A stretch of DNA of 63,208 nt, filler included, from Reclinomonas americana ATCC 50394 (taxonomy: Eukaryota): NCBI GenBank assembly GCA_048213135.1. It is 5 parts of 3 records of this genome, joined end to end, with 100 filler letters (N's around TTAATTAATTAA, not from the genome) between each part and the next. Parts side by side here need not be neighbours in the genome. Positions count along the whole stretch, not along the records: positions 32,796 to 54,039 come from PS015128.1; 4 more parts are not named here. One strand, written 5' to 3'. The first letter of the stretch is position 1; every line of letters begins with the position of its first letter. Positions 37,654 through 41,970 of the stretch are shown in pieces. The position numbers and the translations under genes were made by a program. Below the pieces are notes generated by a model that ran no database searches, had not been told where the DNA came from, and was given only the letters and a program-made list of their open reading frames with translations.

Positions 37654-40600
37654 ATGGGCAGCTGCTTGTCGGTTTGTCAAACGAGACACATGCATGTGAT
37701 GCAAACTGATTTCGATGTGCAGACTGAAGTGTGCTGTGTGTTTGTGTGTGTAAAGAGAGAGGATACCTCGTGGCATCCGCAGCTGTTGACGTTGATTCGG
37801 TTGACGGAGGAGGGAAAGCCGAGTCATGTGGAGTTGATTGCGGTGACGGCGCAGTTGTCGTCGAGTGCGAATCGGGTGCCCACGGTGGCCTCGGTCATTG
37901 AGGTCAGCAGAGGGGGAAGGGATAAGGGGGAAAGAGAGAGGGGAGGAAAAAGGGAAGGGAGAAAAGAGGAGAGAGAGAGAGAGAGAGAGAGAGAGAGAGA
38001 GAGAGAGAGAGAGAGAGAGAGAGAGAGAGAGAGAGAGAGAGAGAGAGAGAGAGAGAGAGAGAGAGAGAGAGAGAGAGAGAGAGAGAGAGAGAGAGAGAGA
38101 GAGAGAGAGAGAGAGAGAGAGAGAGAGAGAGAGNNNNNNNNNNNNNNNNNNNNNNNNNNNNNNNNNNNNNNNNNNNNNNNNNNNNNNNNNNNNNNNNNNN
38201 NNNNNNNNNNNNNNNNNNNNNNNNNNNNNNNNNNNNNNNNNNNNNNNNNNNNNNNNNNNNNNNNNNNNNNNNNNNNNNNNNNNNNNNNNNNNNNNNNNNN
38301 NNNNNNNNNNNNNNNNNNNNNNNNNNNNNNNNNNNNNNNNNNNNNNNNNNNNNNNNNNNNNNNNNNNNNNNNNNNNNNNNNNNNNNNNNNNNNNNNNNNN
38401 NNNNNNNNNNNNNNNNNNNNNNNNNNNNNNNNNNNNNNNNNNNNNNNNNNNNNNNNNNNNNNNNNNNNNNNNNNNNNNNNNCGGTGCACAGTGCGTGAGC
38501 GAAGAAGGAGAGAGAGAGAGAGAGAGAGAGAGAGAGAGTGCGTGTGCATGTGAGTGTGAGGGCTAGAGCGAGGGCAAGGGTGAACGACTCTGAGCACTGA
38601 GATAGGAATGTAGATGAAGAGCTGACGCAAGTGTGGGGAAGACAAGATGTTTAATAAAGCGCACAGTGTGTGTTTCTGTGTGTGTGGAGAGCAGAGAGTC
38701 GAGCCCCTCCTATCTTTCACACTCACTCTCCCGCATCCACCGCAGGGCGAGCTCGCGGAGATGCACGAGCACGCCGAGGCAAGGCGAGTGGCCCTCGAGT
38801 TCCTGGCGCGCAAAATGGGCGTCATGGCCGTGGTGCACACGCTGGTGGCGGAGACGGTGGAGAAGGGCCTGCAGGCGCTGCTGCAGCCGACGCCGAATGT
38901 GCCGGCGATGCTGAGGCCAAACACGTTGCTGTTGGGCTGGCCGCGACAGTGGCCGAAGCGAGTTTTGAAGGGCGCGATGGAGTGGGCCGATGTGTTTGTC
39001 GACGCGCTCTTTGATGCGCACGCGGTGGAGATGGCGGTGCTGGTGTGCAAGAACATGGACACGTATCCGACGGAGCAGGACAAGGTCATGACGGGGCGTG
39101 TGGACGTGTGGTGGTTGCCTCGTTGCGTCCACTCCCTCGTGCACACACACACACACACACACACAAGTCGCCTCTCCCTCATTTCTTCACCTCATTGTTG
39201 TGTGACAGCCGACCATGCGGACGAGTTGGTGTTCTCGGTGATCAAGTGGCTGCACAAGCACCCGATATGGAGACGGTGTAGTGTGCGCGTGTTGGTGGGA
39301 GTGGATCCGGCGCGCATGGCGCCGGCGCGTGTCACCGAGTTTGTCGCGCAGACGTTGAGAAGATCGGGGATTCGGGCGTCGGTGGTGCAGGTGTCGCTGC
39401 AGGTGAAGGGGGAAAGGGGAAGGGGAAGGGGGTGATGGGGGAGGGAAAGGGGTAGAGGGGGAAGGAAAGGGAGAAGTGGGGAGAAACTTGACGATTGAAG
39501 GGAACGAGGTGCAGTGAGGCGTTTGGAAGAAGAGTGGGGAGGAGTGAGAAGGCGGGAAAAAGTGGTAGAGTGGGCGACGTGAGACTGGAGACGAATGTGC
39601 AGTGAATTCCGTGTCCAAGTCGGGTTAGTGAGCAGTGCGAGGAGAATAGGCAGAAAGGTGCAAATGATTTTCTTGGCGTACTCGGGAAGCAGAGAGAGAC
39701 GAAAATGCAGTGGACGGAAAGTTGCAGTGACCTCCGTGTCGTTCTCAGAAAGCAGAGGTAAGCGAAGGGTAAGGTCAAAAAATGCAGTATTTCGCTGAAT
39801 AATGCGCGGAATGCAAAGAGGGGCGATGCTGCAGAGTGGCTCGGGGGGCGAGGTCAGTTATCTGCAGCAATTCGCCGTGTCGTGCTCACATTTGTGAACT
39901 CTTGTGCAGGTTGAGGAACCGCCGACACATGCCAGGTGACTTGCTCCCTCTCTCTTTCTCTCTCTCTGTCTGTCTTCCCCCCTCACTTTCCCTCCCCCTC
40001 CTCTCCCCCCCGCAGCCTGGTACCCCACACACACATTCAAGAGCTGCCGGTGCTGAGCGGCGGCGCCTCACCGTCGCTGCGAGCAGCGTTGAATCGCCGC
40101 CAGCAGCTGAACCGCCGCGGTCTGACGGCCACTATTCGCGACCCGATGGCCAGCTCGTCGCACTCGCTCGCGGCACTCGACGGCGGTGCTCCGGGCGCCG
40201 ATGATGCACGGCGGCGTGTGCATTTTGCGGACACTGTGGAACTCATCTCGTATGTACTGGATTCGGTGACTGCCGATCCGGAGAGACCTCCGCCGCATCT
40301 GAATGCGCCAGCCACGCCGCCGGTGTTGAGCACTTTTAATCTGGATATTGGCGGGTCGTTGCTGGCGGAGGGTGGTGGTGAAGGCGGGGCGAGTGGGAGT
40401 GGAGTGGAGGGGTGCGTGAAAAAGGGAGAGGGAGGAGGCGGAGGGGGGCGGAGAGGGGGAAGGGTGAGAGTGTGAGAGGGAAGGAAAGGGAGGGCCAATG
40501 TTTCACATAGTGAGCGAGTGGTTGTGTGAAGGAGGGAAGCGAGAAAGAGCGAAGAGAGAAAAGGGGGAAGAGAGCAAAGGATGTATGCATACAGCGATGA

Positions 40601-41970
40601 AACAACAACGAATTGTGCTCATGGGAGAACGAGAGAAAGAAGAAAGAGCGAGGAGGTGGACCGAGAGTGTGCGTGTGAGTGATGGAGTGACGGATGGGCA
40701 GAGAGGGTAGAGAGCAAAGGAGGAATGCACGCAGCGATGAAACAACAACGAATTGTGCTCATGGGAGAGAGAGAGAGAGAGAGAGAGAGAGAGAGAGAGA
40801 GAGAGAGAGAGAGAGAGAGAGAGAGAGAGAGAGAGAGAGAGAGAGAGAGAGAGAGAACGAGTACGTAGTACGTAGTACGTTAGTTAGTTAGGTAGTAGGT
40901 AGTAGGTAGGTAGGTAGGAGTAGGAGGTAGGTAGGTAGGTACGGGTAGGTAGNNNNNNNNNNNNNNNNNNNNCGTACGGTACGGTAGACGTAGTAGAGAC
41001 GAGACGAGAGACGACGACGAGAGACGAGACGAGTAGAGAGAGAGAGAGAGAGAGAGAGAGAGAGAGAGAGAGAGAGAGAGAGAGAGAGAGAGAGAGAGAG
41101 AGAGAGAGAGAGAGAGAGACGGGGAAAGAGCAAAGGAGGAATACATGCAGCAAGGCATTCTTTCTGTGTTTGTGAGGGAGAGTGAGAGGCAGGCAGAGAG
41201 TGTGTGAGAGGTAGCGCTTGCGCGAGGATGAGGGAGCGGATGAGACAGTGCGTGAAAGAGAGAGAGTAAGATAAGGGGGAGAGATTGCACGGTGTTTCAT
41301 TCTTTTATTTGTATTTTCGCGTTGATGAACATGGTGACCAGGGAAAGCAACGGAGATGTATGAATGTGCTCTACAGTGGATTTGAGGGTGGCGAGGTTCT
41401 CTGTTCTTCACTGTCTGCACAGGTTGCTGTCTCTTTCATGCACAGCTCTCTCTCTCTCTCTCTCTGTATGTGTGTTTCTTCATGTGTGTGCGTGTAGATA
41501 TCGCACTGCTCTGCGAAAGCAGATTATGTGCGAGAGACAAGTCTTTGGAGATTACAGTTCAGAGACGTGTGCCTTGTCAATATCTGACACACCGCCCACA
41601 GAGAGGCTGGCCGTGCACCGAGCGTGGACCCTGCCGAAATCCGGTTCTCACCCGACGATTTCCTGCAACCGGCTCGCGATCTCAACTCTGCTGTGGTGGC
41701 CTACTCGCACGATGGTATGAGTTGCAGCAGTTGTCTTTTCTCTCCAACCAGTTCCTCACACCGCGTTTACTGCAGCCGACCTCGTGCTCCTCGGCCTGCC
41801 GGAACCCTCCGAAATGCATCCGCCTGTCTACTGTTGCGTCTGAGACAACGCACTTTCTTCTGTCTTTCATCTTCTCACAGTTGGCTCTCGCAGACCTCGA
41901 CTACGTGGAGAAGATGACGGCCAACCTCAAGTGTGTGTGGCTCGTACGCGACGGACTGCGCAGGGAATAG
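37654..41970 (+). CDS. SLC12/KCC-like cytoplasmic C-terminal domain protein lacking the transmembrane domain
   Basis: SWHPQLLTL, ASVIE|GEL, LRPNTLLLGWPRQW, KNMDTYP...GRVDVWWLP, LHKHPIWRRCSVRV, LNSAVVAYSHD|ADLVLLGLPEP and YVEKMTANLKCVWLVRDG follow the order of the KCC C-terminal domain motifs. Confidence 0.85.
37968..38133. repeat. (GA)n microsatellite in intron
   Basis: Pure GA run ending at an N gap; similar runs at about 40765-40855 and 41035-41118. Confidence 0.95.

Follow-up and report, generated by a model that had tools for sequence, protein, structure and literature searches.

The plus strand of the window analyzed here, a 63,208-nucleotide stretch of the genome of Reclinomonas americana ATCC 50394 (NCBI GenBank assembly GCA_048213135.1), carries at 37654-41970 a gene whose spliced model of nine exons gives a product of about 469 amino acids (aa) that matches the cytoplasmic C-terminal domain, or tail, of an SLC12 cation-chloride cotransporter (CCC) of the KCC-like type. 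The protein has neither the 12-transmembrane (12-TM) permease domain nor the scissor helix, because the reading frame goes from the six residues MGSCLS straight into strand β1 of the tail. The best explanation overall, which we hold as a whole with middling confidence, is a real and selected gene for a stand-alone SLC12 tail that is membrane-tethered and acts in trans. The parts of this explanation differ in strength: a stand-alone tail mRNA and protein very probably exist, a lipid anchor on the protein is somewhat favored by its N-terminal residues, and trans-regulation of a cotransporter is a tentative proposal. The CCC tail is credited with dimerization, phospho-regulation, and nucleotide binding, and its control of transport is still debated. 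To our knowledge, it is fused to a permease in all described cation-chloride cotransporters, and a full-text literature search found no description of a natural tail-only SLC12 protein.

Homology to the SLC12 Tail

The spliced model was compared with an SLC12 profile of 928 positions that was made for this analysis from 22 long SLC12 proteins. One alignment starting at residue 10 covers profile positions 534-919 with 166.7 bits (E 3.8e-53). Exon 2, which encodes 49 aa, accounts for positions 534-579, and its SWHPQLL motif aligns with the NWRPQLL of KCC proteins just after TM12, so that the homology sets in at about 37765-37771. All 11 PDB matches of exon 2 up to E 10 are KCC chains, the best at 0.018. 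An earlier reading of the window, made from the sequence alone and called the sequence-only reading below, had placed the onset of homology at SWHPQLL just after TM12, and both the KCC-only PDB matches and the profile alignment from position 534 bear this out. Exon 3 on its own matches Pfam PF03522 with 28.3 bits (cut-off 27) and has 77 relatives among 1.8 billion representatives. Its PDB matches include chains of KCC4, KCC1, KCC2, and KCC3 at E values from 2.7e-11 (KCC4, the best) to 2e-8; NKCC1 chains follow at 1e-3 to 0.1, in a ranking by E value only. A word-based homologue search with exon 3 at "longer" lengths found none, and metagenome-contig scans with exon 3 and with the metagenome protein P0074, which is taken up below, found no relatives. 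Exon 3 by Pfam, the spliced model by the profile, and the KCC chains in PDB all place the product in the PF03522 domain family.

Absence of a Permease Domain

From a set of 78 proteins, the 25 SLC12-related ones of at least 600 aa were used as tblastn queries against the 63-kb window, and their matches below E 1e-3 were confined to 37753-39393; the best E value elsewhere in the window was 0.06 for all 25 queries. The SLC12 profile, searched against 1756 six-frame pieces of at least 15 aa, gave just two pieces below E 0.01, both from the tail. Pfam AA_permease (PF00324) was found in none of 150 open reading frames (ORFs) between 3.8 and 50.8 kb and in none of 46 ORFs between 50 and 63 kb; these scans excluded ORFs that were shorter than 100 aa or of low complexity, which the six-frame profile search covers. 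The most hydrophobic 19-residue window of the product is a core element of the tail fold and not a membrane span. We therefore classify the product by homology as a PF03522 domain-family member and not as an SLC12 transporter, because the 12-TM APC-fold permease domain that defines such a transporter was tested for and is absent from the window.

Between 56.7 and 60.1 kb, the minus strand gave weak profile matches to the TM region (best E 0.065, 7.9 bits), which were considered and rejected. The alignments are short and not hydrophobic, and they fall in a tandem array without a Pfam match. This array occupies 56000-61200 (-) and consists of five diverged copies of an ORF-bearing unit with 62-80% identity and a period of about 1.01-1.19 kb; it looks like a small tandem gene family.

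Start Codon and Transcript Evidence

The divergent neighbor of the tail gene encodes triosephosphate isomerase (TPI), and 540 nt separate the two ATG codons. The sequence-only reading had put the TPI start at 37114 on the minus strand and had described the DNA from there to the first tail exons as free of gaps. Both statements hold: the ATG lies at 37114-37112, with PF00121 matches on two TPI pieces downstream (35625-36380 and 35259-35451), and no N occurs in the contig stretch 36818-38133, within which TPI starts and the first tail exons lie. As had been noted, MGSCLS at 37654 is in frame, and an in-frame TGA at 37642-37644 lies 9 nt before the ATG, which has A at -3 and G at +4.

Independent evidence comes from sequencing runs X1-X4, which were placed on 36880-37935 at 88% likeness (run shares on record: X1 0.11, X2 0.05, X3 and X4 0.00). 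The X2 contigs are about 88-95% alike to the window and, judged by their letters, are from a related organism and not from Reclinomonas americana ATCC 50394. X2 record 1 (162 nt) consists of 33 leader letters, the equivalent of 37653-37671, six letters in the place of window 37756-37761, and then the equivalent of 37762-37865. It shows no differences in the 19 letters at 37653-37671 and 12 differences over 37762-37865. What this contig lacks is 37672-37755, a stretch of 84 nt bounded by GT and AG, with the result that MGSCLS is fused in frame to the tail. X2 record 2 (405 nt) runs through 37848-37903 and continues with letters that a hand reading assigns to the beginning of exon 3 (26 of 31 identical), without the 843-nt intron 2 and the gap inside it. 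Since this record joins exon 2 to exon 3, no exon is hidden in gap 38134-38481, at least in the relative. RNA origin is the simplest reading of X2, because two introns are missing from its contigs. No X2 contigs fell on intergenic or intronic parts of 36880-37935 or on TPI exons 1-2. The metagenome DNA runs X1, X3, and X4 gave 0 contigs on 36880-37935, so that 37115-37653 is without independent DNA support.

The X2 leader also settles where the protein begins. In a hand alignment, 30 printed letters of the leader resemble the upstream flank in the window, and the leader carries a TGA in frame with the ATG; the phase holds whether 33 or 30 letters are counted, as the difference is 3. ATG 37654 is thus the first in-frame ATG after a stop in both the window and the X2 contig, and the stops in the leader mean that the reading frame cannot come from upstream exons. 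ATG 37654 is the start codon and not part of an acceptor. The sequence-only reading had left room for ATGGGCAG to be a splice acceptor in place of a start; this option is not supported, as the contig from the relative continues across these letters into a leader like the window's own flank. It had also named cDNA that links the tail to distant upstream TM exons as an outcome that would overturn its proposal; the X2 contig has an in-frame stop before MGSCLS instead. Its central proposal, a stand-alone tail that starts at MGSCLS with no TM domain upstream, agrees with this leader stop and with the lack of any TM exon in the window. The open frame that it saw from MGSCLS to SWHPQLL survives in part: the MGSCLS exon is coding, and 37672-37755 is an 84-nt intron by the X2 contig and by its composition (below). 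An alternative acceptor CAG at 37722 was rejected on the grounds that the relative's contig has just six letters between 37671 and 37762.

These contigs also bear on an explanation that we consider highly improbable, an assembly artifact in which the 1.3-kb contig 36818-38133 is chimeric at TG-rich tracts or the upstream exons lie on another scaffold. The window belongs to a draft scaffold and contains 18 gaps (runs of N), imperfect TG microsatellites lie between 37455 and 37750, and no sequencing run containing this genome was found. Nevertheless, such an artifact would have to be reconciled with an independent X2 contig that presents a leader with an in-frame stop, MGSCLS, and the tail in one piece, with the window's own TGA ahead of the ATG, and with the consistent continuation of TPI to the left and of the tail gene to the right of the contig in question.

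Selection on the Tail Gene

Base composition at third codon positions provides a separate view of the gene. GC content at these positions (GC3) is 346/451 = 0.77 in the exons versus 0.49-0.58 in introns and intergenic DNA, with 110/125 in exon 3, 87/131 in exon 6, and 6/6 in the MGSCLS exon. In-frame GC3 of intron 1 is 13/28 = 0.46, and this low value together with the 6/6 of the MGSCLS exon agrees with the intron seen in X2. A noncoding MGSCLS had been considered in view of the low GC3 of 37654-37755 as a whole (19/34); it was rejected, as the low value comes from the 84-nt intron, and the six codons of the exon score 6/6. The X2 contigs also permit a comparison of substitutions. Five of the seven listed differences between X2 and the window in exon 2 are synonymous (expected fraction 0.24, P=0.011), and the two non-synonymous differences change I to V and K to Q. 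Exon 3, read by hand from the loose end of X2 record 2, adds three synonymous and two non-synonymous differences. The synonymous excess and the exon GC3 above that of the introns, small as the numbers are, point to a truncated gene under purifying selection in two species.

This evidence is what a transcribed relic would have to accommodate, that is, the 3′ part of a former full-length SLC12 gene that was cut by a rearrangement next to TPI and is still spliced without having a function. The atypical divergence of the tail, its shortened C-terminus, and the lack of an orthologue in databases would suit a relic. We nonetheless rate it as quite unlikely, given that a relative at about 10% divergence has the same truncated architecture, MGSCLS exon included, that synonymous changes are in excess and exon GC3 is high, and that all nine exons have open frames and all eight introns are GT-AG.

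Divergence of the Tail and Other Points Against the Proposal

A number of observations weigh against a functional stand-alone tail that is lipid-anchored and acts in trans, and several of them concern the tail itself. Conserved columns were defined as the 57 with at least 80% conservation in 29 full tails, out of 92 aligned relatives. Of these, 55 are occupied in the window tail, which retains the conserved residue at 31 (56%). Family members retain a median of 93% and a minimum of 67%, values that are inflated since the consensus was derived from the same sequences. No other tail in the compared set is as divergent, and this one stops about seven residues short of the family C-terminus, so that the terminal GxGxEV strand is missing. 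The sequence-only reading had all C-terminal-domain motifs present to the end, which the 31 of 55 columns and the missing last residues contradict. Divergence and the loss of the last strand could reflect relaxed constraint. Among the 1.8 billion representatives, neither an orthologue nor a tail-only precedent was found, and the best relative of the tail exon is a 170-aa fragment with 43% identity. The transcript evidence has its own limits: the library type of X2 is recorded as a guess ("RNA?"), and the RNA evidence amounts to two short contigs (162 and 405 nt) at a depth of 4-5 from a relative, with just 19 nt on one side of the exon 1-2 joint. The RNA evidence does not extend to exons 4-9, among which exon 5 and the 3′ end of exon 6 are provisional, and intron 1 uses an AAG acceptor while the other seven introns use CAG. 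Finally, the case for lipidation is drawn from a motif of six residues.

The window tail keeps PQ-L, GWP, NT, DVWW, the W and R after the outer-lobe helix, and the L-LP and LVR of the end. It has replaced KxGxGL after helix α1, GLGG before NT, and (H/D)DGG after DVWW. The nucleotide-pocket residues of KCC1 are listed in PMC8280820 as K699, D701, K707, Y708, V730, G794, W795, Y797, and D804. Mapping them by hand-read alignments, under an assumed 18-residue numbering offset to chain 7aip_A, suggests that G794 and W795 are kept, that Y797 is replaced by R, and D804 by G; in the β1/α1 loop, R stands at the place assigned to K699.

These changes could suggest an autonomous tail-derived protein that has ceased to serve any cotransporter, for example, a USP-like nucleotide-binding or scaffolding protein that is lipid-anchored or cytosolic. 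The 31 of 55 columns kept, the replacement of KxGxGL, GLGG, and HDGG, and the lost last strand would fit such a protein, and the inner lobe resembles stand-alone USP regulators as described in PMC8280820. We regard this as improbable, however, because the tail profile is matched end to end with 166.7 bits, GWP, NT, and DVWW are kept, and no other domain has been gained.

Putative Lipid Anchor and Proposed Mechanism

The N-terminus of the spliced model reads MGSCLSRED. An SH4-type consensus consists of the initiator Met, Gly2, a small residue at position 3, Ser or Thr at position 6, and a nearby Cys. By eye, MGSCLS fits this pattern with Gly2, a small residue 3, Cys4, and Ser6.

Transcription starts within the 540-nt divergent region between TPI and the tail gene, and translation proceeds from ATG 37654 through six codons and, once the 84-nt intron is out, into ...REDTSWHPQLL.... 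In the favored reading of the gene as a stand-alone tail acting in trans, Gly2 would be N-myristoylated and Cys4 palmitoylated, and through these lipids the tail may be held at the cytosolic side of a membrane, some ten residues from its usual attachment to TM12. A tethered tail would then work through properties known for such tails, namely, folding on their own, associating with each other, and binding adenine nucleotides. Most probably it would pair with the tail of an SLC12 protein that sits in the membrane and is the product of another gene, and would modulate that protein in trans. That an SLC12 tail serves as a separate, dually acylated subunit that docks via the dimer interface on a cotransporter core from another gene, whether full-length or tail-less, is a possible but doubtful mechanism.

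A related explanation is a split transporter, in which a TM-only SLC12 gene elsewhere supplies the membrane part and the lipid-anchored tail is its obligatory non-covalent C-terminal half. The tail begins exactly at the family tail start, directly behind the position of the scissor helix; with an anchor ten residues further upstream, it would occupy the place in which TM12 keeps it in a full-length protein, and the gene appears to be under purifying selection. Yet a TM-only gene is not known, no search beyond the window having been aimed at one, the protein lacks the scissor helix by which full-length proteins link and swap their domains, and several motifs that are invariant in functional transporters have been replaced, all of which makes a split transporter unlikely. 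The alternatives to a trans-acting stand-alone tail are ordered as follows: the split transporter, the autonomous USP-like protein, the transcribed relic, and the assembly artifact.

Comparison with Known Systems

The closest known relatives are the tails of KCC1-4 (SLC12A4-7) and of plant and other KCC-like CCC proteins, to which the window protein is homologous along the entire tail. It shares their order of elements, with a WxPQLL strand, a GWP loop, DVWW, a long unconserved linker, and an LVLLxLP...LVR end. Unlike the KCCs, the window protein has no N-terminal domain, 12-TM permease, or scissor helix and begins with MGSCLS. Tail-only constructs made in the laboratory (C. elegans KCC 6vw9 and 6vwa, zebrafish NKCC1 6npj) comprise the same part of the protein as the window gene, and their chains are among the PDB matches of exon 3. 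These solved structures indicate that the tail folds without a membrane domain. The constructs are engineered truncations, whereas the truncated form in the window occurs naturally, as a gene that possesses a promoter region, start codon, and first exon of its own.

Family members that act on others by association provide a second comparison. CIP1 (SLC12A9) modulates other members by association rather than transport. Both CIP1 and inactive KCC1 truncations keep the membrane domain, unlike the window protein. According to PMC4301019, the C-termini of KCC2/KCC4 and of NKCC self-interact in two-hybrid assays, and a transport-dead, N-terminally truncated KCC1 is dominant-negative on co-expressed KCCs, with hetero-oligomerization. 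The functional analogy to TeaD and other USP-type ATP-binding regulators is that a separate cytoplasmic α/β nucleotide-binding protein regulates a transporter in trans. According to PMC8280820, the inner lobe of KCC1 binds ATP/ADP in a mode like that of TeaD, which is a stand-alone regulator. Unlike TeaD with its single USP domain, the window protein is a two-lobe SLC12 tail with pocket residues partly kept in the hand mapping. The likeness of MGSCLS to SH4-type dually acylated N-termini, among them MGCTLS of G-alpha-i, Src-family kinases, and many protist MGxxC proteins, lies in Met-Gly, Ser6, and a nearby Cys; unlike in those proteins, the cargo behind the putative anchor is a transporter tail.

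We also examined database proteins for other stand-alone tails. PF03522 is the only domain in 9 of 26 proteins scanned. Several candidates were rejected as tail-only proteins: P0054 is a fragment of P0089, which has TM segments; the first residues of P0041, P0037, P0033, P0010, P0071, and P0072 fall within TM12 or the scissor helix; and P0002 and P0047 are cut sequences. Two metagenome proteins contain only an SLC12 tail, begin near WRPQ, and have no TM segment. P0074, encoded on contigs of 6.2 and 3.9 kb, has 350 aa and a complete C-terminus; P0056 has 381 aa with an acidic N-terminal extension. It is possible that these two represent further tail-only genes or are exon-only ORF calls. In the ESM Atlas, a bacterial cluster (score 0.80) of 52 members with about 231 aa, for which Myxococcota are the most frequent source, contains only the prokaryotic CCC tail domains PF21555 and PF21554, and we take it as a lead only to stand-alone tails in bacteria.

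Gene Model and Genomic Setting

The coordinates of the tail gene and of the first TPI exon are collected in Table 1; the nine exons were derived from canonical splice sites together with the reading frame. RNA evidence reaches the first three exons. Exon 4 has a canonical CAG acceptor and GT donor, and further phase-compatible donors after 40249 and 40471 make the 3′ end of exon 6 tentative. Two N gaps fall in introns of the tail gene (38134-38481 and 40953-40972).

Table 1. Features of the SLC12 tail gene and its divergent neighbor (positions in the window)
Feature	Position	Strand	Description and basis
TPI exon 1	37064-37114	-	Triosephosphate isomerase, divergent neighbor; ATG 37114-37112
5′ leader	37621-37653	+	At least 33 nt; X2 record 1 has 33 letters before 37653
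Exon 1, coding part	37654-37671	+	ATG and five codons (MGSCLS); putative N-myristoylation/palmitoylation signal
Intron 1	37672-37755	+	84 nt, GT...AG with AAG acceptor; in frame and stop-free
Exon 2	37756-37902	+	Tail start, REDTSWHPQLL...SVIE; strand β1 and helix α1 of the inner lobe
Intron 2	37903-38745	+	843 nt as assembled; (GA)n runs and N gap 38134-38481
Exon 3	38746-39121	+	Inner-lobe core as far as the DVWW motif
Exon 4	39209-39402	+	Outer-lobe start, PDHADELVF...VVQVSLQ; profile to about 760; tblastn high-scoring pairs to 39393
Exon 5	39910-39935	+	26 nt, tentative; unconserved linker; basis is frame and CAG/GT sites only
Exon 6	40016-40411	+	Ala/Gly/Pro/Ser-rich linker, unconserved in the family; basis is open frame and donor list
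Exon 7	41602-41714	+	Conserved outer lobe resumes (...ARDLNSAVVAYSHD); profile about 854-880; CAG acceptor, GTATGA donor
Exon 8	41776-41825	+	ADLVLLGLPEPSEMHPP; profile alignment, canonical splice sites
Exon 9	41881-41970	+	Ends ...CVWLVRDGLRRE, then stop codon 41968-41970; profile to 919 of 928

Two assembly gaps (34536-35258 and 36381-36817) break up the TPI gene at 34300-37114 (-). The first intron of TPI is about 67 nt with a GTTTCG donor, which indicates that short introns with weak donors are normal here. GT-AG introns occur in the window, and (GA)n and (TG)n microsatellites are numerous. From 34000 to 46000, the plus strand has a strong excess of purines and of G (GC skew 0.18-0.32), and the introns in this range contain long (GA)n, (GAA)n, and GGGA-rich tracts, with several assembly gaps located exactly at such tracts. 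A gene for a plasma-membrane-type P-type H+-ATPase lies at 27700-31000 (+), with matches to E1-E2_ATPase and Hydrolase; its best database relative is 48% identical, which suggests that the lineage is poorly sampled. Further genes with Pfam matches are Methyltransf_16 at 20308-21192 (-), SYS1 at 22584-23051 (-), ankyrin repeats at 44567-45067 (+), an Arf-family GTPase at 46258-46815 (-), and Peptidase_S28 at 62187-63128 (-). Rfam and tRNA scans of the window gave no matches.

Implications

A separate SLC12 tail would add a new domain architecture to the SLC12 family. If the tail protein does act as proposed, Reclinomonas americana would have a two-gene cation-chloride cotransport system that is either trans-regulated or split, and the gene would amount to a natural experiment in which the role of the tail can be seen apart from any covalent linkage. 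A tail that is naturally separate would be proof of a selectable function that belongs to the domain itself, and it would offer a simple system for probing regulation in trans, in which tail and anchor can each be present or absent.

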